Of a DNA stretch of 40,476 nucleotides, positions 14,633 to 34,237 are shown one piece after another; the stretch's first letter is position 1, and each line of letters opens with the position of its first letter. A program made the translations under genes and the position numbers. The DNA comes from a virus (taxonomy: Duplodnaviria; Caudoviricetes). The notes under the pieces were generated by a model. That model searched no databases. It was not told where the DNA came from and worked only from the letters and a program-made list of their open reading frames with translations. The DNA lies in the IMG/VR virus record IMGVR_UViG_3300016471_000324, positions 1 to 40,476 of that record; one strand, given 5' to 3'.

Positions 14633-14781
14633 CAGGACCGGGGCTCCCTGCGCGACAGCATACGTTCGACGGCCCGTGCTTCCGCGCGCGTCAGATAGGT
14701 CACAGGTATCCGCACTGTCTGCGCGAAAGGATCGGCCAAGCCGCGACGCACTTGCCGAAGAAGTTCGGATTCTTCTCGCAT
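14632..14781 (-). CDS. Hypothetical protein (49 aa)
   Basis: TGATG translational coupling at both ends; fills the gap exactly. Confidence 0.55.
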   Translation of the reverse strand: MREESELLRQVRRGLADPFAQTVRIPVTYLTRAEARAVERMLSRREPRS

Positions 14782-16993: not shown

Positions 16994-19180
16994 CTACTTC
17001 ACGTAGCGAACGTCCTCCCATGCGCCGACCGCCGTTGGCATGTCGGGGCACCACGGATCGGGCTCGGCCATAATCCGCTGGTATTCCTGCCACGAGCCGA
17101 ACCACTGATCGACCTCGCTCACGTTCTCGTCGTGGACGGTGAGCACCAGCGGGTAGCCCGCCGCTTCGAGCCGGAACATGGAGGCGACGAGCTTGTCGCG
17201 GGCGAGGCCCTGCACGACGTTGTTGAACTGAAGGCCGCCGTAGAGGCTCTGCGTCGTCCACCGCTTCGTGTAGCTGTCGACGCCCTCGTATTGCACCTGC
17301 ATCTTCACTCGGCCCGCGTCGTCTTCGGTGCGGACAAGGCGCGGCATGGCGTAGCAGATCACCCGCCCGCTCGGCAGGCGGCAGTAGAGGAAGCCGTTGG
17401 CGGCCAGGTAGGTGACGCGGCCGTGCAGGCAGGGCACCTTCAGGCCCGGTGTGCCGACCGCAGCAATGGCCGCATCCTGCAAATCCCACCACGCCTGCAC
17501 GATGTTCGGGTGCGCGGCGCGCCAAGCGTTGACGACGCACTTCACGCCGGTCCACGTCTCCTGATCGAGCCCGCGCGAATCGCGATCCGAATAGGTCGAG
17601 GCGACGCGATACCACTCTTCGGGATCGACGGCCGTGCGCGCGACGTCTGCCACCTGCTGCGGCTTGATCCCGTAGCCTGCGGCCATGGTGATGTAGGCCC
17701 CGACGCTGCCTTGGTAGCCGAGCGCGAGTTCCTGCACCTTGCCGATCTGGCGCTCTGCCTTCGTCACCTGCTCGACGTCGACGCCGAACGACCGGGCGTA
17801 GGACAGCTTGTAGAGATCGTGCCCCTCGCCGCGATCATAGGCGCGGAAGGCTTCGAGCTTCCACTTCTCGTCGGCGATCCACGCCGCGCCGCGGCCCTCG
17901 ATATTGCTGAAGTCGCCCGAGACGAACTTCTTCCCCGGCGCGGCCACGAGCATCGCCCTCATGCACTTGGCGACTGCTTCAAGCGGAGGGCCTACCAGCA
18001 TCTCGATCGCGTCGGCGAGTTCCTTGGCGACCTTGCCGGTGCCGAACATGTCGAGGATCATGAGAATGTCGGGCAGTTCCTCTGCGTCGAATCGGAGGAA
18101 GTTCTGCGGCTGGATAATTCGGCCGGCCCATCGCCCGGTGGCCGCACCGTGATAGGCGAGCGTTCCGCGCACGCGGCCGTCAGCCCCGACGCTGTTGAGC
18201 ATCGCTTTGAACTTGGCGGTCGACGTCTTGGCCGCCGCGCGCCGGAGCCGGATAACCTCTTCGGCCGTCTCGTCGCCCATGATCGACGACATGAGCACGA
18301 TCTCTTCGACCTCGCCCTTGGCGACGCTCTCACAGGGGATACCGCGGGCGTTGAGCCATTTGACGATCTTCGCCGCCTCGGAGCACTTCTTCACTTCGCC
18401 ATCGGTGAGCCACCACATGCGATCGTCGGCGCGCTTCAGCGCTTCGGTGACGACGGCCAGGGCGACTTCGACAGAGGGCACGTCGATCATCACGCCGCGG
18501 TCGTTGATCCGCTGATCGAGTTCCCACACGCGGCGCTCTTCCGGCGAGAGCTGCGGGATCGAGGCGTCGACGCCCGTCTCCGTCTCGACGTCCTGATCGC
18601 AGTAGGCTTGCAGGCGCTCGATCCGCTCTTCGTCATCCCACCATACCGGCACGGTGCCCGTGACGGTCCTGATCTGCCCTGTGCCGCCGCACACCTTGCA
18701 GGCGGGGCCGGAGCACGGCGAGCAACGGTGCGTCGTGTAGACCTCGCCCATGCGGCGCGGCTTGCACATGCGCATCATGAGGGCGTGGCCGTCCTTGTCC
18801 TTCTGGATCGGGGTGCGCAGCGCCTTGCCGAGTTGGTCGAGGCTGGCGGGCAGGCCGAGCGCGAGCCCCCGCGCCATGGTGCAATCCTGCTGCTCGATCT
18901 GGAGGCGCGGCCAGTGCTTCGGCACCTTGGCGTTCCAGATCGGGCGCTCGAAGCCCGCGTTGTGCGCGACGACGCGGCCGCCCTGCTCGACGTGGGCCAG
19001 AAGTTCGTAAGGGTCTTCGTCGCCCGGCCGCCAGCGCTGCACGGGGCCTGTGTTTCCGATGCGCCACGACATGCAGATGATCCCCGTGTCGGGGCTCTCG
19101 GCGTAGCGATAGACACCGGCCTTCTTGAGATCCACGGTGGAGCGCGTCTCGAAGTCGATATGCGCCGAGACGTCGCCCAT
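16994..19180 (-). CDS. polA: Family A DNA polymerase with 3'-5' exonuclease
   Basis: DFET, AHNAGFE and YCDQDV exonuclease motifs; TGRW; motif A DFSNIEGR; motif B RQIGKVQELALGY; motif C TVHDE. Confidence 0.95.
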   Translation of the reverse strand: MGDVSAHIDFETRSTVDLKKAGVYRYAESPDTGIICMSWRIGNTGPVQRWRPGDEDPYELLAHVEQGGRVVAHNAGFERPIWNAKVPKHWPRLQIEQQDCTMARGLALGLPASLDQLGKALRTPIQKDKDGHALMMRMCKPRRMGEVYTTHRCSPCSGPACKVCGGTGQIRTVTGTVPVWWDDEERIERLQAYCDQDVETETGVDASIPQLSPEERRVWELDQRINDRGVMIDVPSVEVALAVVTEALKRADDRMWWLTDGEVKKCSEAAKIVKWLNARGIPCESVAKGEVEEIVLMSSIMGDETAEEVIRLRRAAAKTSTAKFKAMLNSVGADGRVRGTLAYHGAATGRWAGRIIQPQNFLRFDAEELPDILMILDMFGTGKVAKELADAIEMLVGPPLEAVAKCMRAMLVAAPGKKFVSGDFSNIEGRGAAWIADEKWKLEAFRAYDRGEGHDLYKLSYARSFGVDVEQVTKAERQIGKVQELALGYQGSVGAYITMAAGYGIKPQQVADVARTAVDPEEWYRVASTYSDRDSRGLDQETWTGVKCVVNAWRAAHPNIVQAWWDLQDAAIAAVGTPGLKVPCLHGRVTYLAANGFLYCRLPSGRVICYAMPRLVRTEDDAGRVKMQVQYEGVDSYTKRWTTQSLYGGLQFNNVVQGLARDKLVASMFRLEAAGYPLVLTVHDENVSEVDQWFGSWQEYQRIMAEPDPWCPDMPTAVGAWEDVRYVK

Positions 19181-19681: not shown

Positions 19682-20347
19682 TCAGAACAGGCTTGCCGGG
19701 TTAACGGCCGCAGCCTGCGCGCTGGTGTCGATCGCGACGCCCGCGAAGTCGGCAGCGGGATTGCTGCCGCCACCGCCGAAGGTGCGATCCTTGGCGATCA
19801 TCATGAGGCCGTTGAGGCCGAAGCTGACGCCCTTCTTGAGCCCGCTGTCGAAGACGAACGGGCGCAGCACCATGAGATACCAGTAGCCGCTCTGCGCTTC
19901 GTCTTGGCTGGTGATCGGCGCGCCACGGCTGTCGACGATATAAGGCTGACGCTGATCGGCCACGCCGACGATGAAGACGCCGCCGGGGGTGTAGCCCTCG
20001 ATGTTCGCCTTGTCGGCCTGCTGGCGGAACGGCGTGTGCAGCGACGGCCCGCCGGCCTGGCCTGCTTGCGGCCACTTCGACAGCGCGGCTTCCGTGGCCG
20101 CCGCCTTCAACACCGAAATGTCGGCAGCGGGCGGGAAGAGCGCGGTCGCGGTGAACTTGCCCTGCGTCGCGGGCGGCACGGGCTTGGAGCGGGAGAAGAT
20201 ATTGAGGAAGCTGCCGCGCACCGGGCCGGTGCGGTAGTTGCCGTTCGGCTGGCCGTTGGCGTCGACGATCTTCTGGCACGGGAACTTCGCCCACATTTCT
20301 TCGACCCACTTCGGGTCCATGTCGGAGGCGTTCATCACATAGGTCAT
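19682..20347 (-). CDS. Single-stranded DNA-binding protein (DUF2815 / T7 gp2.5-like)
   Basis: VRGSFLNIF, GKFTATALFP, QSGYW, GVSFGLNGLMM...FGGG; between DUF2800 and polA genes. Confidence 0.8.
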   Translation of the reverse strand: MTYVMNASDMDPKWVEEMWAKFPCQKIVDANGQPNGNYRTGPVRGSFLNIFSRSKPVPPATQGKFTATALFPPAADISVLKAAATEAALSKWPQAGQAGGPSLHTPFRQQADKANIEGYTPGGVFIVGVADQRQPYIVDSRGAPITSQDEAQSGYWYLMVLRPFVFDSGLKKGVSFGLNGLMMIAKDRTFGGGGSNPAADFAGVAIDTSAQAAAVNPASLF

Positions 20348-20377
20348 AACTCGGTTCCTTTCTGTCTCGGTTCTCGG

Positions 20378-21706
20378 TTAGCCGTTGATATTTACGCCCG
20401 CAAAGTCTGCGGCCGCACCAGCGGGCACGGCATCCCGCTTGTCCGTGTCGGGCACCATCGTGAGGCCCGAGCTATCCTTCAGGGTGAAGCGCAGCGACAG
20501 ATCGTCGAGGGCGGCCTTGCGCCCCGCCTTGTCGGTGATCTTCGCCTTCACCAGCCGCTCCGCCCCGGTGATCGTCACCAGCTTGCGCGGGAAAATGTCG
20601 TCGGCTTCGACGCCGTAGACCATCTCGACGTAGGCGGCGATATCACCCTCCGCGTCGATCCACTTGCGGCGGCCCTGCTTGTCGACGAGCTTGTAGCCGG
20701 GGATCGCGACGCCTTGCACGAGGCAGTTGTAGGCGAAGTCGCGAACCTGATTGGCCCATGCGGTGAGCACGTCGAGCCCTTGCAGCAGCGCGGCGATGCG
20801 CGCGGTGTCCATGTCCTTCGGCTCCGGCAGGGCTTTCGGGCTGATCCCCGCGACGTCGTGGAAGTCAAGGCCGATGGAAGTGATAACTTCCTGCTGCTTG
20901 ACCGGGCACACGGCGGCCGCATCGCACCAGCGGCAATGCTCACCTGCCGCGTAAGGTTTCCACTCTGCGCCGCTTTCGTCGACCAGCGTGTCAGTCGTTT
21001 TGGCGGGTAGAAGCTCGATATCCTTCGCCCGCGCCACCGCCTGCTCGACCGTGCCAACGAACTCGATTAGCTCGAAGGTATCCATCGGCCAGGGCTTGAC
21101 GCCCGGCACGTCATACTGATCGGCGTCGCGGGCGCGCGGCTGCACGATCACAAGCTCCAGTTCGGCGATGCTCCATTCGGGGTGCGACAGAGCGGCCCCG
21201 GCCGCATAGAACTTCAACTGCGGGCTATCCTCGACCGACACGCTGACGCCCGCGCCGTGCTTGTAGTCGAAGACGACGAGGCGGCCGAGCGAGGGGTGGT
21301 AGACCAGCGCGTCGTTCGCGCCGAACACCTCGCCCTCTTCGGCCGTCGAGATCGGCAGGGTGAAGCGTTCCTCGATCAGCAGCACCGGATCGGGGCTGCG
21401 GTTCATCTCTTCCTGCACCGCGTCGAGGTAGACCTGCACGGCCGCCGCCATCTCGGTCGTGACGGCCTTGCGGCTGGCGAGCTTCGGGCTCCACACCTCG
21501 TCGCCGATCTTCTGGCTGGCGTCGAAGATGCGCTGCGACAGGCACTCTTCGGCCAGGGCGTGCGCGAAGGTGCCCTCGTCGGCGTAGGCGGAGGAACGGC
21601 GCTCGGGCACGCTCTTGACGAGCGCGACAGAGCCGGGGCATTTTATCACTCTTCCTATGACGCTACCGCCGAAATCCGAGTGTGCTTTCGTTGCATGTTC
21701 AGACAT
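20378..21706 (-). CDS. DUF2800 Cas4-like PD-(D/E)xK exonuclease
   Basis: CPGS, EGTFAH, FGAND, VFDYKHGAG, QLKFYA, IVQPR, HCRWC...CP; RBS before ATG 21706. Confidence 0.85.
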   Translation of the reverse strand: MSEHATKAHSDFGGSVIGRVIKCPGSVALVKSVPERRSSAYADEGTFAHALAEECLSQRIFDASQKIGDEVWSPKLASRKAVTTEMAAAVQVYLDAVQEEMNRSPDPVLLIEERFTLPISTAEEGEVFGANDALVYHPSLGRLVVFDYKHGAGVSVSVEDSPQLKFYAAGAALSHPEWSIAELELVIVQPRARDADQYDVPGVKPWPMDTFELIEFVGTVEQAVARAKDIELLPAKTTDTLVDESGAEWKPYAAGEHCRWCDAAAVCPVKQQEVITSIGLDFHDVAGISPKALPEPKDMDTARIAALLQGLDVLTAWANQVRDFAYNCLVQGVAIPGYKLVDKQGRRKWIDAEGDIAAYVEMVYGVEADDIFPRKLVTITGAERLVKAKITDKAGRKAALDDLSLRFTLKDSSGLTMVPDTDKRDAVPAGAAADFAGVNING

Positions 21707-21802
21707 TGAGGTTTCTCCGTTCGTTCGGGTGAGAGGCGATCTCTCCGGGAAGGTTAATATGCGCCGCCGAAGCATTGCACCCACGACCGCCTCTCGCCAG
21801 AA

Positions 21803-21822
21803 CGCCGGGCCGAAGCCCGGCG
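21803..21822 (-). terminator. GC hairpin with cUUCGg tetraloop (terminator or stability hairpin)
   Basis: Minus strand CGCCGGGC-TTCG-GCCCGGCG right after stop of 21828..22409; weak U tract. Confidence 0.45.
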
Positions 21823-21827
21823 CACGG

Positions 21828-22409
21828 TCAAGCGGCTTTCGCCGCCACGAGGGCGTCGAGGGTGCGGCGCATGATCGTCGGATCGTCCTTCGCCTTTTCG
21901 ACGACGTTAGGCGAGCCGCTGGTGAGACTCTTGCAGCCAGTCGCGGCTTCGAGCGTCTGCATGGCGAACGACGCGCTCTTGGCCTTCAGCAGATCGGCCA
22001 TGGCGTCCTTCAACTGCTGGATCGTCACCTCGCCCGCGTCAGCCGCAGCCTGATCGGCCGGGCTGGTGGCCGCCGGGGTGGCCGTGGTGGCAAAGGGATC
22101 GACCGCAGCGTCAGAAGGGGGTGCAGCGGTCGTCGCAGTGGGGCCATTGTCGGACGTCTGGCCGCCATTGTCCTGCGTAGTAGCCGGGGTAGACGACGCT
22201 GCCGTGGCCGCGCTCGCATCGTCGCTCTTCGGCTTCCGGCTCCGGGCGTTTCCCTTGGGGGCCGCTTCGGTCGCAACGACCGCCTCGACGGCGGCGGGGG
22301 TGTGTGCGATCTCGGGCATGATGGCCGTCGACGGGGTGCGCACGAAACGCGCGAGTAGAGTGTCGAACTCCTGCACGTTGTCGGCGCTGATCGTGAGGTT
22401 GATAGGCAT
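21828..22409 (-). CDS. Hypothetical replication-module protein with disordered Ala/Thr/Pro linker
   Basis: 193 aa; AGGAG RBS; C-terminal helical domain (TIQQLKDAM...GCKSL); upstream of DUF2800 gene. Confidence 0.7.
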   Translation of the reverse strand: MPINLTISADNVQEFDTLLARFVRTPSTAIMPEIAHTPAAVEAVVATEAAPKGNARSRKPKSDDASAATAASSTPATTQDNGGQTSDNGPTATTAAPPSDAAVDPFATTATPAATSPADQAAADAGEVTIQQLKDAMADLLKAKSASFAMQTLEAATGCKSLTSGSPNVVEKAKDDPTIMRRTLDALVAAKAA

Positions 22410-22431
22410 TTCGGTGTATCTCCTGTTCAAG

Positions 22432-22469
22432 AGGACTAACGTGTTATGCGCGGCGCTTGCGCTTGTCAA
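22432..22469 (-). promoter_or_regulatory. Promoter with TAACACGTTA palindrome
   Basis: TTGACA at 22469-22464; GCATAACACGTTAGTCCT matches 27634-27651 at 17/18 positions. Confidence 0.6.
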
Positions 22470-22980
22470 TAGCGCCGTTGAGCAGATCGGTCATCTCCCG
22501 TGCAATGCGCTCGGCGAGATAGCGAACGTCGCGCTCCGTCCACCGATGATCTTCGGCCAGGGCGTAGCCGACAGGCTCCGCGTATCGGTTCTCCAGTTCG
22601 ATCCGAACCATCGGCCGGAACTCGTCGCGCGAGAGGTGCAAGCGCCAGATCAGCGCCTCGATAATCGTCACGACGGACGTCATGGGCACCGGGGCGCTGC
22701 GCGGCACGATCCTCATGAGATCGACAGGGGAGAGCCGGAGCCGGCCGCCGAACGATCGCACGTCTTCGACCGCCATGCGCCGCACCTGCTCGTTGAAGGC
22801 GCTATCCGGCCCCATAAGCTGCGCGACGTCTTCGGCCCAACGGTGCAGACGCGAACGAAGCTCGTCGGCTTCGAGCTTCCGTTCCCTGCTGCGGTTCAAT
22901 GCCTCCGAAAGCATCTCGTTTTTGGTGGCGATCTCTTCGCGCATCCTGCGGCGCTGATTGCGCCCGAATCTCTTGCTCAT
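22444..22980 (-). CDS. Hypothetical protein (178 aa)
   Basis: ATGA overlap with helicase stop; MSKRFGRNQRR start; RBS present. Confidence 0.7.
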   Translation of the reverse strand: MSKRFGRNQRRRMREEIATKNEMLSEALNRSRERKLEADELRSRLHRWAEDVAQLMGPDSAFNEQVRRMAVEDVRSFGGRLRLSPVDLMRIVPRSAPVPMTSVVTIIEALIWRLHLSRDEFRPMVRIELENRYAEPVGYALAEDHRWTERDVRYLAERIAREMTDLLNGAIDKRKRRA

Positions 22981-24449
22981 GCTGCTTCTCCGTAGTTTTC
23001 GATCGAGGCGATAGCGGCCGTCTTGCGCGCCACGGTGTCGCTCACGATTTCGTCGATCGAACCGGCGAGGCTGATGAAGCGGGCGCGGACGTTCTTCGCC
23101 TGGCCGATGCGGTGCACCCGCATGAGGGCCTGCGCATTGTCGGCCGGAGCCCAACTGCTCTCGAACATGTCGAGATCGCTGGCGGCGGTGAGCGTGAGCC
23201 CCGTTCCGGCGGCGCGGATATTGCCGACGAAGACGCGGTGATCGGGGTCGTTCTGGAACGACTGCACCGCGGCCACCCGGTCAAGCTCTTTGGTCTTGCC
23301 GTCGACGAGCGTCGCGTGCAGTCCCTCGCTGGCAAGATAGCTGGTGATGATCTCGGCCGCCTTGGTGTGCCATGTGAAGACGACGAGCTTGTCGCGACCG
23401 TTGTGCAGTTCCTCCGCGATCAGCTTCGAGTAGGCCGGAGCCTTGGCCTCGCCGACGAGACGGCGCAGCGTCGCAATGTGCTGCGCGTCGAGGAACGATA
23501 GGCCGCCCTGCTCGATCGCGTCGAGGATCGCCTGCTCCAAGCCCGGCCATTCCTTCAGCATGGCGACGATCTCGCGCGTATCGCCGTCCACGGTCGTCGT
23601 CGTGAGGTGGATCGGGGGTAGCTGGAGCCCGGCCTGCGCCTTGGTGCGCTTCAGCCGGAAGGCGTCGAGGGCCATCTTCAGTTCGGGGATCATCTCGTCG
23701 CGGGGCGTCTGCTTGGCGCTGAAGGTGCCCATGCGGCTCTTGAAGTAACGGGCGGTGAAGGGGCCGAGCCCGAGCGTCGTGCCGCCGACGAAGCGGAGCC
23801 ACGGCCACACGTCGACAGGATCGTTCGGCATGGGGGTGCCCGTCGCGAAGAAAACGCGGGCCGCCCACCGCGCCAGCCCGTTCGCGCCGTCGCATTGCGT
23901 GCCGAGGATGGCTCTCGTTCGCTGCGAGGTAGGCGTCTTGAGGTAGTGGGCTTCGTCGAGCACAAGCACGTCGAACAAATCGCCGTGGCGCTCGATCTCG
24001 GGTGCCCATTTGGCCGCAAGCTCGTAGCTCACCAGCATTACGTCCGCTCGACCTTTCAGCCATGTGCCGAGATCGTGGATATTCTTCGCCTTCAGTATTT
24101 TGCGCGGGATACGGGCGAATTTGCGAAACTCGCCTGCCCACACTTCGCGCACGGCGGCGGGGCATACGACTATCACCCGAAACGCCCCGCAACGGTCGAG
24201 CGCGCCGATTATCTGCGCGGTTTTCCCGATTCCCATTTCGTCGTGCAGCGCCGCTCGATCCCGGTTCGCCAGAAACTCCGCGCCTTGGACCTGATAAGGG
24301 AATAGCTCTAAAGGCATTTTGCACCTTTGCGTCGGTTGTCTGCCCGCCATAGCGGTTGAATGTTGGTGTAGTGACACGCCTGCGCGGTCGCGATTGGCGA
24401 GGAAGTCTGCGCCCTGCACCTGATAGGGCATGAGGTTGAGGGGTGTCAC
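22977..24449 (-). CDS. SNF2/SF2 helicase with duplicated N-terminus
   Basis: PYQ, DEMGIGKT, DEAH, TGTP, GTGLTL and QALMRVHRIGQ motifs; GTG 24449 coupled to MTase stop; second in-frame ATG at 24317. Confidence 0.9.
   Translation of the reverse strand: MTPLNLMPYQVQGADFLANRDRAGVSLHQHSTAMAGRQPTQRCKMPLELFPYQVQGAEFLANRDRAALHDEMGIGKTAQIIGALDRCGAFRVIVVCPAAVREVWAGEFRKFARIPRKILKAKNIHDLGTWLKGRADVMLVSYELAAKWAPEIERHGDLFDVLVLDEAHYLKTPTSQRTRAILGTQCDGANGLARWAARVFFATGTPMPNDPVDVWPWLRFVGGTTLGLGPFTARYFKSRMGTFSAKQTPRDEMIPELKMALDAFRLKRTKAQAGLQLPPIHLTTTTVDGDTREIVAMLKEWPGLEQAILDAIEQGGLSFLDAQHIATLRRLVGEAKAPAYSKLIAEELHNGRDKLVVFTWHTKAAEIITSYLASEGLHATLVDGKTKELDRVAAVQSFQNDPDHRVFVGNIRAAGTGLTLTAASDLDMFESSWAPADNAQALMRVHRIGQAKNVRARFISLAGSIDEIVSDTVARKTAAIASIENYGEAA
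24308..24382 (-). pseudogene. C-terminal remnant of an HNH homing endonuclease, out of frame inside helicase 5' end
   Basis: +1 frame reads QACHYTNIQPLWRADNRRKGAKCL-TAG, resembling the HYTNLQPLW..DN..KG end of HNH nucleases. Confidence 0.75.
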
Positions 24450-25366
24450 ACCAGCGTCTCCTTCAGCGCTTCGAGGAAGCCGGTCGCGACTTGCGCGTTG
24501 ACCGCATTTCCGTAGGCGCGCAGTCGTCCCACTCTTCCGGCAAGCCCATGAGCCAGCGGGAATGTGCCGGGTTCAACGGGCCTCCGGCTTGGCTCTCCGA
24601 CAGGGTTTCGGCACAGCAGCCAATCAGCGCCTCGCCAGTATCCGCTAACCGGCCCCGGACGCAGAACGGCCCCTCCATCTGCATTTCGAGCGCCAGCTTC
24701 CGTATCGCCACGAGGCCCGCCGAGTTCCCCGCCTCGTTGTTGCCGTTCTTCGCTGGCGCTAGGCTCGTCGGCGTCGGCCAGCCCGTCAAGGCTGCTGCTG
24801 CCGGTAGCCGATCCGGCCCCTGCGACGGGCCTCCGTTCGGGCCGTCCTGCGCGCAAGGGGTCGGCCACCCATGCAAGGTATAGGCGCTGACGGATATTGG
24901 GCGAGCCGAAGCCCGCAGAGCAGAGATCGAGCGCCCCGCCGGTGTAGCCCGCGCCTTCCATGTCAGCCGATACAACGTCGAGCCAAGCAAGTCCGTCTTT
25001 GCTCGCAACCTGCTCTCCAACCCACACAGGAAAGCCGCACTCGCGGATGAGGTGGTATTGCGCAGGCCATAGATGCCGCTCATCCTCAACCCCGCCTCGT
25101 CGGCCTGCCGCGCTGAAAGGCTGGCAGGGGCAGGAGCCGGTGGCGAGAGGGCGGTCGTCGGGCCATCCGGCGCGGCGGGCGGCGTAGCTCCAGACGCCGA
25201 TCCCGGCGAAGAAGTGGTGCTGTGTGTAGCCTCTAAGGTCATCGGGTGAAACGTCCCTAATATCGCGCTCGTCGACGTCGCCGGGCGCTATGTGTCCGAA
25301 AAGGATCAACCGGCGCAGCCACTCGGCGGCGAAGGGGTCGATCTCGTTGTAGTAGGCACCGCTCAC
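24446..25366 (-). CDS. DNA cytosine-C5 methyltransferase, alpha polypeptide (lacks motif IX)
   Basis: Motif [40 protein letters not shown]. Confidence 0.88.
24463..25242 (-). CDS. Nested +1-frame ORF: probable methyltransferase beta polypeptide (start uncertain)
   Basis: 259 open codons inside the MTase; two GWPTP repeats and [16 protein letters not shown], a motif IX-like segment. Confidence 0.7.
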
Positions 25367-25998
25367 CGGCTGGCCTCCTGCGAAGCCACGGCGCTAGCTG
25401 TGCGTGCGAGCTTGGCGGCCGCTTTCCGCTCCGCAGCCGCCTCGCGATTGCGCCGCGCCTGCTCGACGTCCTCCTGCTCTTCGGCGGTGCGGGTGCGGCG
25501 CACCCCACCTTTGATCCAGCGCTCGCCGTAGAGCGACAGCATGGCCGCCTCGGCCTTGCCGTCGTCCTTCTGCATCGGCCAGAGGTGCGCGAGCATCGGC
25601 AGCATCTCGGAAGCGCGGCCGCGCGCCGCCCGCTTGTCCTTCGGCACGCGAAGCTCGGCTTTCCAGAGCGCCGGAGGCACCGCCTCGATCGCGAGCCCTG
25701 CCGCCCTGGCCGCCATGCGCACGATCCCGTAGCCCATGCCGAAGTTGAACGCCGCAGGGGCGCTCTGGCCGGGGAGGCCCTGCACCTGTTCGATGAAGAG
25801 GTGCGTCGCACCCATCGCCGCGAAGGCTTGGAGGGTCGAGAGCACTTCGGCCTCGTCGATGATCGTGCGCTTGGCGCGGCCGCGGATTTCGCGCTTCTGC
25901 ACCGGCATGGGCACGATCTCGAAGCGGCCGGTCGACCAATCGTTGAAGCAGAAGGCACCCGTAATGCCCGGATCGCAGGAGAGGATCAAAGCCCCCAC
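25363..25998 (-). CDS. RuvC-like Holliday junction resolvase
   Basis: CDPGITGA, FIEQV, AFNFGMGYG, VPPALWK, DGKAEA. Confidence 0.82.
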   Translation of the reverse strand: MGALILSCDPGITGAFCFNDWSTGRFEIVPMPVQKREIRGRAKRTIIDEAEVLSTLQAFAAMGATHLFIEQVQGLPGQSAPAAFNFGMGYGIVRMAARAAGLAIEAVPPALWKAELRVPKDKRAARGRASEMLPMLAHLWPMQKDDGKAEAAMLSLYGERWIKGGVRRTRTAEEQEDVEQARRNREAAAERKAAAKLARTASAVASQEASR

Positions 25999-26384
25999 TC
26001 CGTATTGCCATAGAGCACGGCCTGAAAGACCATGATCCGATCCGGCTTTTCCATGAGGTTGAGCCGAGTGCAGATGCGCGTCGCGATCTTGTGCAGCCGC
26101 ACGAAATCGCGGTTCTTCGTCACGATCAGGTTGTCGCTGCCGCGCCGGAACGACGTGAAGGTATTAGCGCAGACGTTCTGATAATGCTCCGTCGCGCCTT
26201 CCCACTGCCACCCCTCTTCGTCGAGATAGGTGAGCAGCTTCGACAGGTGATCGTCCGTAGCGACGAAGACGAGATAGTCCGTGTCGGTATCGACCGGCGC
26301 GGGATTACACGTCACGCGGCTCCCGCACGGCGTCACTTCAGCGCCATACCATAGCTCCAACTTCTCGATATCCTGCGGCGTCAT
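25986..26384 (-). CDS. Minimal nucleotidyltransferase-like protein (pol-beta superfamily)
   Basis: CGSRVTCNPAPVDTDTDYLV fits hG[GS]-x(9-13)-DxD. Confidence 0.6.
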   Translation of the reverse strand: MTPQDIEKLELWYGAEVTPCGSRVTCNPAPVDTDTDYLVFVATDDHLSKLLTYLDEEGWQWEGATEHYQNVCANTFTSFRRGSDNLIVTKNRDFVRLHKIATRICTRLNLMEKPDRIMVFQAVLYGNTEWGL

Positions 26385-26386
26385 CG

Positions 26387-27136
26387 TCAATGCTCCAGAA
26401 AGGCGACGTTCTTGGTGGTGCTCCAGCACGCCGCGCACGTCGCGCAGCAGCGCGTCTTGCCTGTCTGCTCGGGGCACACGAAGGCGTCGGACGGGCAGCC
26501 GGCTTCGGCTTTGATCGAGCGCGTCGCCATGCGCGGCGAGGTGCTATTGCTGTTGCGGATCATCCACCGCCGGTCGAACTCGATCTCGCCGAGCATGAGG
26601 CGCTGGCCGATAGTGCCCGGCCAATCGTGCGCCGTGTAGCCGAAGATCGCGAGGCGCGGATGCTTGCGAAGCTGATCGCGCCAGAAGTCGACATAGCCGA
26701 CGCTGTAGAAGTCGCCGAGCGCGTGGAGCCGGATCAGCAGCATCTCGATCTCGGCTTCGAGCGCGGGCAGGAACGCAGGGTCGGTGTGGTCGATCCGCTT
26801 GTTCATATGGAGCGCATTGCCGTAGCAGTCGCGCCAATGAAAACAGGATCGCGGGCAGGTAGCGCGCTCTTCGAGCGAAAGAGTGTAAATCCAATAGCCC
26901 TTCAGCTTCCCTTTGCGGACGTCTCGGCCGAGCTTCATGTTGTTGTGCCCGCTCACCAGCAGGTTGCCCGCGTGAGCTATGCGCAGCACTCGGCCCTTGA
27001 ACCGCGTTCCGGTAGCGTCTGCGGGCATGGGCGCAGCCTTGCGCTCCGACTTGTGGAAGCCATCGGTTTTGACGAACCGCGTCAGCGTTGCGTCGTCACC
27101 CTGCGCGGCCGAAGCCTTACGCCTGTTCGCTAGCAT
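26387..27136 (-). CDS. Gp88-like Cys-rich (radical-SAM-like / Fe-S) protein
   Basis: TCPRSCFHWRDCYG, RLHALGDF, IFGYT and C-terminal CPEQ...CATCAACW; AACGGAGA RBS. Confidence 0.7.
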   Translation of the reverse strand: MLANRRKASAAQGDDATLTRFVKTDGFHKSERKAAPMPADATGTRFKGRVLRIAHAGNLLVSGHNNMKLGRDVRKGKLKGYWIYTLSLEERATCPRSCFHWRDCYGNALHMNKRIDHTDPAFLPALEAEIEMLLIRLHALGDFYSVGYVDFWRDQLRKHPRLAIFGYTAHDWPGTIGQRLMLGEIEFDRRWMIRNSNSTSPRMATRSIKAEAGCPSDAFVCPEQTGKTRCCATCAACWSTTKNVAFLEH

Positions 27137-27218
27137 TTCGGTTCTCCGTTGAAAAGAATCCCGAGCCCCCGCGCTCGATGTAGTCGGCGGCCCTGCGCAG
27201 GTTCGATAGCTGCTTCAC
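27117..27218 (-). pseudogene. 33-codon ORF, possible remnant of an endonuclease VII-like gene
   Basis: GTGA-coupled start; LRRAADYIER resembles the Endo VII-family terminal helix. Confidence 0.35.
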
Positions 27219-27610
27219 CAGCGAAGCCCCTTCATGCAATCGCCGAGCACTTCGGCCGCGACGACCTTGGCGATCTCGGCGTGAAGCGCCTGCATGAGTT
27301 CGATCTTGTGCCAGCCATCGGGCTTCACCTCGTCGACACTGGCCTTGGCGGTGCAGCGCTTGCCGTTGATATCGAACACGGCAGCGGCGAAGATCATGTA
27401 GTTCTGCGACGGCTCCTGCCACACCTCAAGATGACCCTTGAAGGCGTTGCCCTCCAGCTTCATCGCCGCGATCCGCTTGGCGTCGGCGGCCTGCTCCATC
27501 TCGCGCAGCAACTTCACGCTCTCGTCGGTAGGAGCGCGTTGCTCGGTGACGTTGACTTGGCGCGTGACGTATTCGGTGCGCGGGCGCGGTGTGATGTAGG
27601 TATCGAACAT
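27215..27610 (-). CDS. Hypothetical protein (131 aa)
   Basis: AACGGAGA RBS, upstream promoter, typical codon bias. Confidence 0.75.
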   Translation of the reverse strand: MFDTYITPRPRTEYVTRQVNVTEQRAPTDESVKLLREMEQAADAKRIAAMKLEGNAFKGHLEVWQEPSQNYMIFAAAVFDINGKRCTAKASVDEVKPDGWHKIELMQALHAEIAKVVAAEVLGDCMKGLRW

Positions 27611-27633
27611 GTTGCGTCTCCGTTGCTGCTGGC

Positions 27634-27664
27634 AGGACTAACCTGTTATGCCCACATACGTCAA
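27634..27664 (-). promoter_or_regulatory. Promoter with TAACAGGTTA palindrome
   Basis: TTGACG-N17-TTAGTC; palindrome at 27639-27648. Confidence 0.65.
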
Positions 27665-27727
27665 GAGCCGCCGCGCAGATTTTTGCGCAGCGGCTCTCGA
27701 AGCGCCATGATTGCGAGGGGTAGCGGG

Positions 27728-27910
27728 CTAGTCGACTTCGCCGTTCAGTTTGTCGGCCAAGCGTTTCGCCGCCTCGAATGACGCGAACCGAAGTGCGCGG
27801 CCCCTTTTATCCTCGTGCCACTCTCTGCCCGCGAAGCGCGACACGCCCCATCTGTATTTGCTGGCACCGTGGCTGCTCGGATACCACGTCGGGTCGGTGT
27901 AGGCGTCCAT
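27728..27910 (-). CDS. Hypothetical protein (60 aa)
   Basis: TGATG coupling; GGAGGTG RBS; MDAYTDPTW...LNGEVD. Confidence 0.65.
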   Translation of the reverse strand: MDAYTDPTWYPSSHGASKYRWGVSRFAGREWHEDKRGRALRFASFEAAKRLADKLNGEVD

Positions 27911-28614
27911 CAGTCCACCTCCCCGATCGCGGCGAGCATGTCGCGTTGCAGTTGGGCGAGCAGGATCATGCGCTCGCCGATATCGTCGGCCAGGTGCCGG
28001 ATCGTCTCGGGCTCCAGCTTCTCGGGCAGTTGGCCGCGCGCATAGGCTTGGATCGTGGCGCGGCTCTTGCCCGTCATGGCTGCAAGCTCGCGGTCGGCCG
28101 TGCCCGTCAGTTCCTTGTAGCGGCCGATGAACGTGGCCTCGGGGTCGCGCATGGCCTTGGCCTGCCGCTGCCGGTGCGCCTCTGCGTAGCTCACGGGCTT
28201 TTTCCGCCTCGCGGGGGCCGGTTTTTCGGCCACGCCGCCTGCGGCGTCGCCACTGCGTGCTGGTGCGTTTTCCGGCTCCGAAGGTGGTGCAGGGGCCTCC
28301 AAGGGCTCTTCGCGCTCCACGGGGCTTGTAGCGGGGCTCTGGCGATATGCGCCGCAATCCATGCAACGGCCGTTGCCCGCGATACGGGGTGCGGCGCACG
28401 GCTTTTCGAGCCTGCACCCTTCGTCGCCCGGCCCCATGATTGCGACGGGTGCCGGTGCGCCTTCAAGCGCAAGCTCGATCGCGATTGCGACGTCCAAGGG
28501 GTCGTCGCTGCCGAGCAGGGCGGCCGCTTCGGCCTCCTGCTCTTCGCGGGTGGACGTGGCGAATGTGGGGTCGTCGCGCAGACAGATCGCGACGGCTTCA
28601 GGTGTCATCGCCAT
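27910..28614 (-). CDS. Putative transcription regulator with C-terminal XRE-type HTH and Cys cluster
   Basis: DRELAAMTGKSRATIQAYARG HTH; C..C...CMDC; GGAGG RBS before ATG 28614. Confidence 0.65.
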   Translation of the reverse strand: MAMTPEAVAICLRDDPTFATSTREEQEAEAAALLGSDDPLDVAIAIELALEGAPAPVAIMGPGDEGCRLEKPCAAPRIAGNGRCMDCGAYRQSPATSPVEREEPLEAPAPPSEPENAPARSGDAAGGVAEKPAPARRKKPVSYAEAHRQRQAKAMRDPEATFIGRYKELTGTADRELAAMTGKSRATIQAYARGQLPEKLEPETIRHLADDIGERMILLAQLQRDMLAAIGEVD

Positions 28615-28762
28615 CGTTTCGTTCCTCCAGTAGTGCGATGAAACGCGGCCAGGCGGCACGCAGATCGCGGTAAAGGCTCCAGCCAGCGAAAAGGCCGGCG
28701 GTCGCCATGATTGCGCGTGCGGCGAGGTCAATGGCCTCGCGGTGCTCCAGAGCCCAAGACAT
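28598..28762 (-). CDS. Small membrane protein (54 aa)
   Basis: TAATG coupling; hydrophobic AIMATAGLFAGWSLY. Confidence 0.55.
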   Translation of the reverse strand: MSWALEHREAIDLAARAIMATAGLFAGWSLYRDLRAAWPRFIALLEERNDGDDT

Positions 28763-28953
28763 TAGCCGCGCATCCTGCGGCGAATGTCGGCGATGCGCTG
28801 GTGCTCCGCCTCTTCGGCCTTCAGCCGTTCGTTGCGCTCGCGCCATGCCGCTTTCTGCGCGTCGCTGACACGCGGATTGGCAAAGCATGCGGGATTGTCG
28901 CAATCCTCGCCTGCGTGCGGATAGCCGCAATCCGGGCAAGTTTTCAGATCCAC
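28762..28953 (-). CDS. Small zinc-binding protein (63 aa)
   Basis: CPDC...CDNPAC; AACGGAGAAACGAC leader. Confidence 0.65.
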   Translation of the reverse strand: MDLKTCPDCGYPHAGEDCDNPACFANPRVSDAQKAAWRERNERLKAEEAEHQRIADIRRRMRG

Positions 28954-28996
28954 GTCGTTTCTCCGTTTCGCGGCCCCATGATTGCGGGCGCGCGTG

Positions 28997-29060
28997 GCCT
29001 AGTGCCATCATCGCCCCCTGAACGGCCGGAGCCGCGCAAGGGGTTAATGGGGCACTAGGC
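28997..29060 (-). other. Long intergenic hairpin (RNase III-like site candidate)
   Basis: GCCTAGTGCC/GGCACTAGGC 10 bp base stem plus imperfect upper stem. Confidence 0.55.
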
Positions 29061-29453
29061 GACGCGGCGAAGGTTGCAGAACATGCCCGCGCCTTCGCCA
29101 AAACCCTTATAGCGCGCTCCGGCGATGGTCGTTTCGATCCGCACGCGCCGCTTTCCGCCGGCCGTGCGATAGTGCTCGACACGCGCGGAGCCGAGATTGT
29201 CGCCGGGCCAGGTGGTAACGGCCGTGCAATCGCTGTTGAGGTAGGCATAGAGGCGCGCGGGCTTGTCGCGGAAAATCTCGAAGCGCTCGACACGGCCGCG
29301 CATGGCATTATCGCACGCGGCATAGTCAGTGTGCGCGGCCGCTTCCTTCGGAATGACAATCCAGCCGTTTTTCTGGCGAAATTGCTCCGCATAGGCCGCA
29401 GCCTTATCGCAGATAGTGCGCTCGCGCTCATAGTCGGTTTGCGTATACGTCAT
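29055..29453 (-). CDS. Hypothetical early protein (132 aa)
   Basis: GCGGAGAAACGACC-ATG leader identical to that of 29525..29812. Confidence 0.75.
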   Translation of the reverse strand: MTYTQTDYERERTICDKAAAYAEQFRQKNGWIVIPKEAAAHTDYAACDNAMRGRVERFEIFRDKPARLYAYLNSDCTAVTTWPGDNLGSARVEHYRTAGGKRRVRIETTIAGARYKGFGEGAGMFCNLRRVA

Positions 29454-29475
29454 GGTCGTTTCTCCGCTAGTGGCT

Positions 29476-29528
29476 CTAGTGCCAATGCCGCGCCCGGCCG
29501 CGAAGGCCAGGCGCGGTGAGGGCATTAG
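29476..29528 (-). other. Long intergenic hairpin (RNase III-like site candidate)
   Basis: CTAGTGCC/GGCATTAG base, CCGCGCC/GGCGCGG and GGCC/GGCC upper stems. Confidence 0.55.
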
Positions 29529-29812
29529 GCGGCGCGTTGGATACCGAAGCCGGTTTTGGTGCACCAAATCCTGAACGTGTGGCCTACAGGCGAAACGAAA
29601 GTCTTGCCGCGGCCCTTCTGCCAATAATCCGTCGCGCCTAGGGTGAGGCCCTTTTCTTGGACGTAATATCCGAACTCAAAGGCGAGATGCAGCGGCGAAC
29701 CCCAAGGGTGGGGGTTGACGTATTGGCAGCGCCCGTAGGCGAGGCTCACCCTCTCGCCTTCGCGGTATCCGGCCTCAAGAGCCGCGCGCTCTGCAGGTTT
29801 CATATGTGCCAT
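29525..29812 (-). CDS. Early protein with Rmf/CrpP-like N-terminal motif (95 aa)
   Basis: AGYREG...NPHPWGSPLHLAFEFGY; strong RBS and promoter. Confidence 0.65.
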   Translation of the reverse strand: MAHMKPAERAALEAGYREGERVSLAYGRCQYVNPHPWGSPLHLAFEFGYYVQEKGLTLGATDYWQKGRGKTFVSPVGHTFRIWCTKTGFGIQRAA

Positions 29813-29860
29813 GGTCGTTTCTCCGCTGCGTCACCGCGCCAAATCGCGGCTCACTCCCGC

Positions 29861-29889
29861 TATATGGCAATTTTGCTAGAAGCCGTCAA
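29861..29889 (-). promoter_or_regulatory. Sigma70-like early promoter
   Basis: TTGACG-N17-CATATA. Confidence 0.6.
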
Positions 29890-29908
29890 GCCCTTATGGC
29901 AAAAAAAG

Positions 29909-30301
29909 CTAGAACAAGCTCGCAGGGTTGACTTCGCCGGGCGCAAACTCACCTATGCCGTAAAGGGTGTAACGGTGACGCGGGCCTTTGGGGAAGCTCT
30001 GCCAAGCGCGCGGACGTGCTTTGCGGCAATCGGGGCAACGGCGCATGAAGCCCTTGAAGCTCGCGCCGGTGACTTGTTCAAACTCGCAGCTGCATTCGCT
30101 GCATTCGCTCTGCCAGGTAAGAAGCGTTCCGGCGCTGCCATCGCGGCGCGTGTGATCCTCGAAGTCAATGAGCTTGTGAGTGCAGACGTGCACACGTTCG
30201 CGGCAACGGCCCGTCGCGGCTTTGCGGTCGACGACCAGTCGCGAGCCTATTTCGGGCGTATCATCGCCGGTGAAGTCGAGATAAGGCATTATTCGGGGCA
30301 T
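29909..30301 (-). CDS. Zinc-ribbon protein ending VNPASLF (130 aa)
   Basis: CSEC...CPDC; GAGGAG RBS before ATG 30301. Confidence 0.75.
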   Translation of the reverse strand: MPRIMPYLDFTGDDTPEIGSRLVVDRKAATGRCRERVHVCTHKLIDFEDHTRRDGSAGTLLTWQSECSECSCEFEQVTGASFKGFMRRCPDCRKARPRAWQSFPKGPRHRYTLYGIGEFAPGEVNPASLF

Positions 30302-30772
30302 GGGTGTTTCTCCTCTATATGAAACCGCGCATCCGTAGCGCAAAAGTGTTCCGTTTCATAGCATATATTCTATTCCATAGCCGGGGGGTTACTACCACCC
30401 CGTCTCGGCTTGCGCCGCCCTTCCGGGCGTCGCGCCTCTACGGCCCCGGCGTCGCTATGGCAGGTAGTAGGTGGTAAGGGGTGGTATTTAGGGGCCTACC
30501 TTACACTTTTGCTATAGGGTTTTTGCCCCGTTCACGTCACTGCGAGACGCTTTCAGGCCTCTAATCCGCCCCGGTTCTGTGGGCTTTGCGGCTTTCAGGT
30601 GCCCGATTCCCAAGGCGTTCGCCATGGCCGATTATCCGTTACGGTTCAAAGGCTTAAGGGTGAGTTGCACCTCTTTTCTAAACCCCGTTGCGCCCGCTTC
30701 GGCTATGGGGGATAGTTCCCTAGCGCCTTATCGGCCCGGCCTCTAATCGCCGAAAATCGGGGAAAATTCAAA
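30302..30772. other. Divergent non-coding control region (candidate origin / pac / genome end)
   Basis: Largest ORF-free gap; lower GC; inverted repeats; separates the two transcription directions. Confidence 0.55.
30688..30716 (+). promoter_or_regulatory. Putative promoter for TerS
   Basis: TTGCGC-N17-GATAGT. Confidence 0.4.
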
Positions 30773-31459
30773 ATGTCTGGCAAAAGTGCAACTTATCGCG
30801 ACCCGTTCAAGCCCGCAACGCCGCAACGCCGCAAAACCGGCTCTCGCGCCAAGCTCGCAAAGCGTTTCTTCGAAGACGTCTACGCCGCTTGGGAAGAGCA
30901 GGGGGAAAGCGTCATAGCCCGCGCGTTCTTTCACGATCCCGTCGCCTCTATGCAAATGGTTGCGCGCCTCATGCCGCAAAAGATTGAAATCAGCACGCCC
31001 ACTGACGGTATGTCCGATGAACGCCTAGCCGAAATGCTAGAATATGCGGAACGGATGGCAGGGCTCAAAGCCGAACAAGCGCGCGTCATTCAAGCCGATG
31101 CGCCTGGCCTTGCTGAAAGCGCCGCGCGTGCCCTGCCCTCTCCGCCACAGGCTTTGCAGCCTGCCCCGCTTCGCTCGCACAAGCTCACCGACGAAAACGC
31201 CGATCTGCCCGATGCGCCCGAGAGGGGGGCGGGGGGCCGCTGCGGCGAAATGGGTGTCGGGGGAGAAAATACCCCATCCACAATAGCGGCGGAGCGGGCC
31301 GAGACGGCCGACACGCCGGAACGGCATAACACGTTAAAACAAGCAATCCTGCCATATCCGGTAGGTCGCCCCTTCGCCGAACCGGATCATAGCGTTTCTG
31401 CCAGAAACCGCGCCGCGCTCCAGCAGATTGATCCTGTTGACCCCGCGTCTCTGTTCTGA
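30773..31459 (+). CDS. terS: Putative terminase small subunit with long disordered tail ending VDPASLF
   Basis: GSRAKLAKRFFEDVYAAWEEQG...DP...VARLMPQ helical domain; first gene of the packaging arm. Confidence 0.6.
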   Translation: MSGKSATYRDPFKPATPQRRKTGSRAKLAKRFFEDVYAAWEEQGESVIARAFFHDPVASMQMVARLMPQKIEISTPTDGMSDERLAEMLEYAERMAGLKAEQARVIQADAPGLAESAARALPSPPQALQPAPLRSHKLTDENADLPDAPERGAGGRCGEMGVGGENTPSTIAAERAETADTPERHNTLKQAILPYPVGRPFAEPDHSVSARNRAALQQIDPVDPASLF

Positions 31460-31523
31460 AAGAATAGGCCGCGTCGCTTCGGCAACTCGTTCGCCGATCC
31501 GGCATCCTCTCCCAAACTCACCA

Positions 31524-31871: not shown

Positions 31872-32013
31872 AGCAGCGCTGATCGCCGGAGCGTCCCTCT
31901 GCCTCGGCCCGGTGATCCTCGGCATCGTCGTGCGCTCGTGGGTGATCGGCTGGAGCAGGCCACGCAGTGGCGACGCCGCAGGCGACGTAGGTCAGGAGGG
32001 GCCTCTTGTCTGA
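31858..32013 (+). CDS. Small membrane protein (51 aa)
   Basis: GGAGG RBS, GTG start; MGFAEAALIAGASLCLGPVILGIVVRSW. Confidence 0.45.
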   Translation: MGFAEAALIAGASLCLGPVILGIVVRSWVIGWSRPRSGDAAGDVGQEGPLV

Positions 32014-33514
32014 AGCCGATATCGCCCCGCCAGCCACGTCGCAGACGTCGCCGCCAACCGAAGACGCCTCGCCCGAAGAGTGGGCCGTCTTCGCGCAGCG
32101 GATCAGGGCCGAGAAGGACCGGCGGTTCTCCGAGAACCGGCTGGCGCACTACAGGCCCTACGCCAAGCAGCTAGAGTTCCACGCGGCCGGGTGTCTCCCG
32201 ATCTACGAGCGCCTGTTCATGGCCGGGAACCAGCTAGGCAAGACGTTCGCCGGAGCCGCGGAGGTCGCCATGCACCTCACCGGCCGCTACCCGCAGTGGT
32301 GGCCTGGCCGCCGGTGGGATCGGCCGACGACGTGGCTCGCCGGATCGGTGTCGAGCGAGCTTACCCGCGACGGCGTTCAACGCCTGCTCGTCGGCACCCC
32401 CAAGGTCGAGGCCGAATGGGGCACCGGCTACGTCCCCAAGGACGCGCTGCTCGATTGGTCGCGGCGGCAGGGCGTGCCCGACGCGCTCGATTCCATCACC
32501 GTCAAGCACGCAGCGGGCGGGGCGTCCACCCTCCTGTTCAAGTCTTACGACCAAGGGCGCGAGAAGTGGCAGGCCAACACCGTCGACGGGGTGTGGTTCG
32601 ACGAAGAGCCCCCGCAGGACGTCTACTCCGAAGGGATCACCCGCACGACGGCGACCAGCGGCTCGACCTTCTGCACCTTCACGCCGCTGCTCGGCATGTC
32701 CGAGGTCGTGCGCCGGTTCCTCAACGAGAAGGACGCTCACCGCGCGGTCGTCACCATGACGATCCACGACGCCGAGCACATCAGCCCCGAAGAGCGCGAG
32801 CGCATCATCGCCCGCTACCCCGAACACGAGCGCGAAGCCCGCGCCATGGGGGTGCCGATCCTCGGCTCCGGCCGCATCTTCCCGATCGCCGAGAGCCGCA
32901 TCCTCATTCCGCCGTTCAAGCTGCCCGATCACTGGCCCCTGATCGGCGGCCTCGACTTCGGGTGGGATCACCCCACGGCCGCCGCCAAGCTCGCATGGGA
33001 TCGCGACAACGACGTGGTGTATCTCGTGCGCGAGCACAGGTTGAGCAAAGCGACGCCAAAGCAGCACGTCGCCACTATCGGCGACAAGCGCTCGTGGGGC
33101 GATATCCCGTGGGCGTGGCCGCATGACGGCATGATCGCCGACAAGGGCTCGGGCGAGCAGCTTGCCAAGCAATACAAGCAGGCCGGGCTCAACATGCTCG
33201 GGGAGCATGCGCAGTTCCCGAACGGCTCGAACTCCGTCGAGGCCGGGGTGCTCGAAATGCTGGAGCGCATGAACGACGGCCGGTGGAAAGTCTTCGACGG
33301 CGTGTGCCCGCTCTGGCTCGAAGAGTTCCGCCTCTACCACCGCGAAGACGGCAAGATCGTGAAGGAGTTCGACGATCTGATCTCCGCTAGCAGGTATGCC
33401 ATGATGATGCTAAGACACGCGCGCATCGCCCGCCGGAGCGTCAACCCGTTCGGCTTCGACGAGCGCGGCGGCCCCGGCAGGATCGCAGAGGGCACGGGCG
33501 AACCGAACTGGTAG
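32006..33514 (+). CDS. terL: Terminase large subunit
   Basis: Walker A AGNQLGKT, Walker B VWFDEE, TFTP, nuclease GLDFG and DDLISASRYA; AGGAGG RBS before TTG. Confidence 0.93.
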   Translation: MSEADIAPPATSQTSPPTEDASPEEWAVFAQRIRAEKDRRFSENRLAHYRPYAKQLEFHAAGCLPIYERLFMAGNQLGKTFAGAAEVAMHLTGRYPQWWPGRRWDRPTTWLAGSVSSELTRDGVQRLLVGTPKVEAEWGTGYVPKDALLDWSRRQGVPDALDSITVKHAAGGASTLLFKSYDQGREKWQANTVDGVWFDEEPPQDVYSEGITRTTATSGSTFCTFTPLLGMSEVVRRFLNEKDAHRAVVTMTIHDAEHISPEERERIIARYPEHEREARAMGVPILGSGRIFPIAESRILIPPFKLPDHWPLIGGLDFGWDHPTAAAKLAWDRDNDVVYLVREHRLSKATPKQHVATIGDKRSWGDIPWAWPHDGMIADKGSGEQLAKQYKQAGLNMLGEHAQFPNGSNSVEAGVLEMLERMNDGRWKVFDGVCPLWLEEFRLYHREDGKIVKEFDDLISASRYAMMMLRHARIARRSVNPFGFDERGGPGRIAEGTGEPNW

Positions 33515-34213: not shown

Positions 34214-34237
34214 CAGGGGGTGCGCGTGGAAGGCAAC

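Follow-up and report, generated by a model that had tools for sequence, protein, structure and literature searches.

A seven-residue C-terminal tail shared by the protein that binds single-stranded DNA, a zinc-ribbon protein and the probable small terminase of a tailed virus

The binding motif of the bacterial beta sliding clamp is QL[SD]LF, and in phage T7 the gp4 protein has a tail similar to that of gp2.5, the phage's protein that binds single-stranded DNA (SSB). The C-terminal tail of gp2.5 is reported to interact with the DNA polymerase of T7 and its primase-helicase (excerpts of PMC5686142 and PMC10359462). In T4, gp43, gp55 and gp33 carry interchangeable C-terminal motifs that bind the gp45 clamp (PMC2988020, in part). 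The C-terminal domain (CTD) of lambda Red-beta is described in passages of PMC6393309 as a three-helix bundle that binds a helix of the exonuclease and that is needed for the Phe-ended SSB tail to be bound. Here I analysed the IMG/VR virus record IMGVR_UViG_3300016471_000324 (Caudoviricetes; 40,476 nucleotides, the whole of which is called the window), in which three unrelated proteins, an SSB, a zinc-ribbon protein and a probable small terminase (TerS), end in the same tail, V[ND]PASLF (the tag).

Three unrelated proteins with the same ending

The tags, their genes and the region between two of them lie as follows.

19682..19705, minus strand: terminal tag VNPASLF and stop codon on the SSB (six-frame translation, codon check, homologues)
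29909-29932, minus strand: terminal tag VNPASLF and stop codon on the zinc-ribbon protein
31436-31459, plus strand: terminal tag VDPASLF and stop codon on the probable TerS
19682..20347, minus strand: SSB of the Enc34/T7 gp2.5 type (DUF2815), 221 residues, with an oligonucleotide/oligosaccharide-binding (OB) fold and a disordered tail from about residue 190
29909..30301, minus strand: zinc-ribbon protein with two CxxC, 130 residues, first gene of the leftward arm
30773..31459, plus strand: probable small terminase with a DUF5681-like core (about residues 20-100) and a long disordered extension
30302..30772, no strand: divergent non-coding region, partly conserved

It was confirmed that the tail shared by the three proteins is real and is selected as a peptide. 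In the six-frame translation of the window, PASLF followed by a stop codon occurs exactly three times, at the ends of the SSB (stop ending at 19682), the zinc-ribbon protein (29909) and the probable TerS (31459). From the residue frequencies of the window, the chance of one gene ending so is p ~5e-9, and that of any such triple among about 60 genes is ~1e-12. A preliminary description had reported these tails, and all of its coordinates and codons match; its statement that the two non-SSB carriers border the divergent non-coding stretch is also correct. The same description held that the match lies in the protein rather than in a DNA repeat. This stands, since the three 24-nucleotide copies differ pairwise at 6, 6 and 9 positions, the Ser codons switch, and relatives keep the tails on all three genes; no further DNA copy within 7 mismatches was found in the window. 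Each of the three tagged genes uses AGC as well as TCN codons for Ser, Leu codons vary in the TerS and zinc-ribbon genes, and the zinc-ribbon genes use all three stop codons. Such codon switching indicates that selection acts on the peptide. The present analysis adds to that description a predicted promoter inside the TerS tail, a second SSB motif common with the exonuclease, and a shortened tag copy in the gene at 21828-22409.

The SSB matches PF10991 (E-value 2e-17; 63.7 bits versus a cut-off of 26) and phrog_112. Its AlphaFold2 (AF2) model has a predicted local distance difference test score (pLDDT) of 88, with 43-55 in the tail, and Foldseek matches it to 5odj (E 6e-10) and 4klk, at E ~1e-9, and to 1je5 (E 3e-5). 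The protein has a gp2.5-like OB fold and a C-terminal tail that is unstructured, and its terminal Phe lies on this disordered tail. Among 58 SSB homologues the tag is present in strict form in 19 and in loose form in 48 (the SSB alignment A2 holds 51 of the 58, three close and four divergent or partial sequences being excluded). Some homologues carry two to three repeats of the motif or one extra residue past LF (P0172, P0174, P0177, P0175), which fits a binding motif. More distant SSBs end in LF[DG], IFG, DPF[AS] or SF[LM]x.

The zinc-ribbon protein has the tag in 4/4 database matches and in 8/8 aligned loci, which include the window (L045, almost a copy of L044, was left out). Across the eight loci the bodies of the orthologues are 38% identical (minimum 21%) and the tails 78%. 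The nearest ESM Atlas clusters are 87-93 residues long and the top structural alignments cover residues 1-101 only, which suggests that the tail was appended.

For the window TerS protein, Pfam and PHROG searches gave no match; its relatives match the unnamed phrog_8771. I infer that it is probably a small terminase from its similarity (32% identity over 79 residues) to a gene of Rhizobium phage RHph_N2 that has no annotation and overlaps terL, from one ESM Atlas cluster, in which 22% of members carry DUF5681 (score 0.92), and from its position upstream of terL. It has a helical core of about 100 residues, and in G001, G005 and RHph_N2 the reading frame of the homologue runs into that of terL; the closest cultured matches of the downstream large terminase (TerL) include P22-like phages. 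The Atlas pLDDT for the whole TerS is 0.53.

Among 120 TerS homologues listed of 170 matches (44-94% identity), 118 have the motif ending, 112 of them as strict [IV][DN]PxSLF; the two untagged exceptions are short (158 and 177 residues) and look frameshifted. The last seven positions of the 118 tagged proteins read I90/V27/T1, D117, P117, a variable residue (A56, Q36, E13, others), S115, L118 and F118. A profile search gave 1,543 representatives, of which the best 150 were taken, 146 of them new. Among these 146 the tag falls with similarity, from 22/25 of the best to 15/40 of the next and 2/81 of the last, so the tag marks a subclade with the long extension. In 33 hand-picked tagged members, identity is 48% in the core, 13% in the extension before the tag and 75% in the tail, the last value being partly due to the picking of tagged members. 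A zinc-ribbon insert of the CxxC..CxxC type lies inside the disordered extension of 17/120 listed homologues (e.g., P0027, P0044, P0051, P0053, P0054, P0060 and P0092).

The end of the TerS gene is probably dual-coded, holding both the peptide and a predicted late promoter that would serve the genes for packaging and the virion.

31437..31465, plus strand: predicted sigma70-like promoter (TTGACC-17-AAGAAT, its -10 element preceded by TG), which overlaps the codons of the TerS tag

It is the one sigma70-like hit between 27000 and 34500, a span for which shuffled sequences give an expectation of 1.1. TTGAC is present in 17/18 TerS ends versus 13% expected from the codon use of the same genes (the formal p of 2e-14 is too strong because the genes are related), and these ends have TTC in 18/18 and TGA in 17/18. 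Within the close clade the -10 element matches at about 4/6 positions, and in L060-L064 at fewer. A tRNA-Gln(TTG) gene of L041 has a copy of the last 33 nucleotides of TerS on either side (L041:10585-10787).

How did the tag spread among the three genes? The SSB of G001 ends in VDPSSLF and its TerS is untagged; in G005 both proteins are untagged, and the TerS homologue of RHph_N2 is untagged too. L060, L061, L063 and L064 have a tagged TerS, no tagged zinc-ribbon gene was seen upstream of it, and their SSBs lie outside these loci. As G001 carries the tag on the SSB and not on TerS, the tag appears to be older on the SSB. The simplest order of gain would be the SSB first, then TerS and then the zinc-ribbon protein.

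In a sister group with another virion module, an unrelated helical protein, the product of the last late gene, ends in xx[ED]LF[ASG] in 7/11 loci (e.g., L081:12127-12696, L083:13672-14493 and L090:13439-14635, all on the minus strand), while the SSBs there end in LF[DG], IFG or DPFS. It adjoins a gene which I take to be ATP-grasp-like and is possibly the small terminase of those phages. It had no match in a PHROG search, and no homology to the window TerS was detected (hhalign probability 0.8%). Another unrelated protein, scaffold-like by eye, ends in VDPATLF (L058:2646-3455 and L059:2622-3431). These two loci were picked up by a DNA pattern, have no homologue of the window proteins, and were excluded from every count.

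What the tag may bind

The genes that bear on the binding partner are given below.

16994..19180, minus strand: family A DNA polymerase (PF00476, under the curated cut-off; phrog_17)
14781..16670, minus strand: PrimPol-helicase (Prim-Pol and AAA_25; Pfam/PHROG matches)
21828..22409, minus strand: unnamed protein with a short N-terminal domain, a long Pro/Ala/Thr linker and a C-terminal helical bundle (21831-22040)
22092-22103, minus strand: shortened tag copy VDPF in the linker of that protein
20378..21703, minus strand: DUF2800 Cas4-like exonuclease (PF10926, E 7e-63), with a repeat of the inner SSB motif in its tail (20393-20413)
19736..19756, minus strand: inner SSB motif AADFAGV, which tracks the exonuclease tail
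32006..33514, plus strand: TerL (PF03237, PF17289; 49% identity to P22-like phage terminases)

The tags sit at the free ends of tails predicted to be flexible. On balance I favour the reading that [IV][DN]PxSLF is a short docking motif by which all three proteins would reach a single pocket of some protein of phage replication, the likeliest being the family A DNA polymerase. The tag would be the ordinary interaction tail of the SSB in this lineage; one subclade would later have added it to TerS, and a narrower subclade to the zinc-ribbon protein. The tagged TerS would thereby be tethered to replicating DNA, and packaging would begin on fresh concatemers; the early zinc-ribbon protein would either be brought to the same pocket or compete for it.

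What reads the tag? By analogy, some phage replication protein seems a reasonably good expectation. Among individual proteins the family A polymerase is placed first because of the precedent of the T7 gp2.5 tail and because the polymerase itself was never tagged in the loci examined, although by such analogy the choice is tentative. The linker protein at 21828-22409 is a more doubtful candidate and the PrimPol-helicase an unlikely one.

The architecture of the 21828-22409 protein is found between the helicase and exonuclease genes in most loci (55 of them picked by eye), and the protein may be a client of the tag, a reader of it, or both. A linker [DN]PF is present in 7/53 loci, 6 of which have a DP-type SSB end, a pairing confounded by clade. 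Its C-terminal domain is modelled by AF2 as three-helix with a pLDDT of 91. Foldseek gave no match to the domain and Pfam and PDB sequence searches no significant one (best PDB E 0.12), and the best VIA hits, at Z 5.9, were generic three-helix bundles. Lambda Orf (1pc6) stood at background level in VIA (Z 4.4, rank 36, root-mean-square deviation 3.9, 61 residues aligned); a suspected resemblance between this domain and lambda Orf or the Red-beta CTD was not confirmed by Foldseek, VIA, Pfam or PDB sequence searches. The TerS tail (residues 199-228), the polymerase and this domain were co-folded in one job; the score of 0.15 (mark, 0.32) has no bearing either way. A broader and rather speculative proposal is that phages with DUF2815, DUF2800 and PolA use a private peptide address code, in which the 21828-22409 protein, as a non-enzymatic adaptor, would read tags on the SSB, the terminase and accessory proteins and join replication and packaging in one multivalent assembly. 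New clients would then be gained by adding seven residues, whose codons in TerS would double as a promoter.

In some relatives an SNF2 helicase or exonuclease has an SSB-like ending (LRNIF, ESLFS, VDPFSST, VDPFAA or GGIFD; L008:942-2381, L009:2985-4442, L108, L115, L121, L125), indicating that the set of tagged proteins varies. The inner SSB motif was compared with the tail of the exonuclease encoded by the same phage. From 78 loci with both genes complete, 45 remained after thinning, by which kinship was reduced and not removed; the pairing score was 19.2, versus 14.3 +/- 0.63 in permuted pairs, and was reached in 0/5000 permutations. AADFAGV is probably a second docking motif that links DUF2800 to DUF2815.

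This second motif bears on a rival in which the tag docks on the OB-fold groove of the SSB itself, and the other two tagged proteins imitate this tail in order to board SSB-coated DNA. According to passages of PMC5686142, the C-terminus visible in Enc34 and in two DUF2815 crystals binds the beta-sheet groove of a neighbour, and the last 11 residues of Enc34 are disordered. The groove and the tracking of the inner motif by the exonuclease tail both speak for this rival. However, the traced part of Enc34 ends 11 residues early, and this suits the terminal tag less well than the inner motif; the inner motif may thus be read by the SSB, and the terminal tag by a different protein. I regard docking of the tag in the SSB groove as unlikely. 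A reader from the host, whether DnaN (the beta sliding clamp) or some other protein, is given a similarly small chance. The SLF ending resembles the clamp motif, the proteins covered by the Pfam/PHROG scan showed no phage clamp, and T4 places its shared tails on a clamp (PMC2988020, the part cited above). Against this, position -4 from the Phe is Pro in 117 of the 118 tagged TerS tails, His in 1 and Gln in 0, and the commonest six residues at -3 are A, Q, E, N, S and T, with no Leu among them. SSB endings also vary by phage clade, which fits a phage-encoded reader, though hosts vary too. The preliminary description had proposed a shared docking tag tying packaging to replication and had named DnaN, with its QL[SD]LF motif, as a possible partner; the former stands as the best inference, while the latter is disfavoured by the Pro at -4.

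Could the tag instead be a TerS-TerL contact, which the SSB and the zinc-ribbon protein mimic to recruit or restrain TerL? C-terminal TerS segments are known to bind TerL in several phages, and the tag is strictest on TerS. Yet untagged TerS proteins stand beside TerL proteins of 58-64% identity (G001, G005 and RHph_N2), with G001 keeping the tag on the SSB only, and such a contact seems improbable. About as improbable, or slightly more so, is a C-terminal degron by which a host protease (ClpXP, Lon or Tsp) would clear the three proteins together: a hydrophobic free end on a disordered tail would suit it, and the internal repeats in SSB tails and the extra Asp, Gly, Arg or Ala past LF in relatives would not. 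The least probable rival makes the peptide a by-product of a conserved DNA element, the promoter, captured at three gene ends. The constancy of TTGAC, TTC and TGA in the TerS ends and the 33-nucleotide copy around the L041 tRNA gene agree with it. However, TTGAC is found in 0/8 zinc-ribbon ends and 0/6 SSB ends, the L060 TerS keeps VDPASLF without TTGAC, and Ser switches between AGC and TCN. The promoter thus accounts for an extra role of the TerS end and not for the shared peptide.

Several points weigh against docking on a common replication protein. Co-variation of the tails genome by genome, which the preliminary description had put forward as a check, was not seen: in the four records holding all three tagged genes (the window, G033, G034 and the L011 contig), tail likeness is 5.17 of 7 within genomes versus 5.11 of 7 between them. 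There is no fine-scale co-switching; the motif is simply fixed in the clade. The link between the tagged proteins is optional, because no tagged zinc-ribbon gene was seen upstream of TerS in L060, L061, L063 and L064 and the TerS of G001 and G005 is untagged. The homologues are related, so the counts do not equal independent events, and a share of the conservation of the TerS tail is at the DNA level, in the promoter. The tail is barely acidic (net charge of the last 12 residues 0, -1 and -2), unlike the acidic tails of T7 and Enc34. Finally, the identity of TerS is indirect, and the partner was picked by analogy and exclusion alone.

The genome and the divergent region

The record is 99% complete by CheckV, with a G+C content of 65%, and its modules form two arms.

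One arm: PrimPol-helicase, family A polymerase, Enc34-type SSB, DUF2800 exonuclease, SNF2 helicase, cytosine methylase and RuvC-like resolvase
Other arm: large terminase, portal, capsid and virion genes

This layout is presumably that of APSE/BPP-1-like podophages, and I take the window to be a near-complete member of them. The nearest cultured terL genes are those of Rhizobium phages (64%), and a scan of genome contigs did not find a close prophage; an alphaproteobacterium would be a guess for the host. Other proteins of the window ending in Phe are an HNH endonuclease (14168-14632, minus strand; DCPF), the PrimPol-helicase (14781-16670, minus strand; LPSF) and the portal (34220-35869, plus strand; AAPF). 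The portal and PrimPol endings are also present in close relatives.

The preliminary description had the zinc-ribbon gene lie beside an origin. No such signature was found in 30302..30772: the cumulative GC skew stays at 0.20-0.27 from 6 to 35 kb without an inflection, and there is no iteron array. A partly conserved inverted repeat, TACTACCACC ... GGTAGTAG, lies at 30385-30472 in the non-coding region and is present in several relatives. An operator-like palindrome, TAGC-N6-GCTA, is clustered near the region (29865-29878, 30359-30372, 30378-30391, 31026-31039 and 31390-31403), with 17 matches of up to one mismatch in the window versus 8.0 expected. A palindrome of this type overlaps a TTGAC promoter right after the zinc-ribbon stop codon. 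A helix-turn-helix gene is located at 27910-28614.

Comparison with described systems

Beyond T4, T3/T7 and a few others, little is understood of how tailed phages pass newly made DNA on to the packaging motor. A TerS with an SSB docking tail would offer a concrete handle, namely, a seven-residue peptide, few possible readers, and relatives that naturally carry or lack the tag; one candidate reader is the adaptor-like gene at 21828-22409, which is present across the family and unstudied. I found no literature on a small terminase sharing an SSB tail among titles and abstract openings, mainly of open-licence papers.

The locus resembles the T7 system in the fold class of the SSB, in its disordered, Phe-ended tail and in the family A polymerase of the same module. 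In contrast to gp2.5, the tail here is hydrophobic and Pro-capped rather than strongly acidic; its other carriers are the zinc-ribbon protein, an early one, and the probable TerS, not the helicase, and its partner here is a proposed one. As in T4, three unrelated phage proteins have a near-identical ending, and T4 joins late transcription to replication in this way. The motif differs, however, no clamp gene was seen among the scanned proteins here, and the second process would be packaging. Readers of bacterial SSB tails include the Red-beta CTD and lambda Orf, and a small, flexibly tethered domain of three helices that binds both a Phe-ended SSB tail and an exonuclease serves as the model for the 21828-22409 protein, whose gene adjoins the exonuclease gene; this is an analogy, homology not being established (1pc6, Z 4.4). 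The tag shares the SLF end of QL[SD]LF (Ser 115, Leu 118 and Phe 118 of 118 tagged TerS) but has Pro for Gln at -4 and A, Q, E, N, S or T at -3. In the bacterial case, one C-terminal SSB tail serves many readers, whereas here one tail is found on several clients. T4 and T7 already provide cases of unrelated phage proteins with a common tail, and the new aspect would be a probable small terminase with the tail of an SSB.

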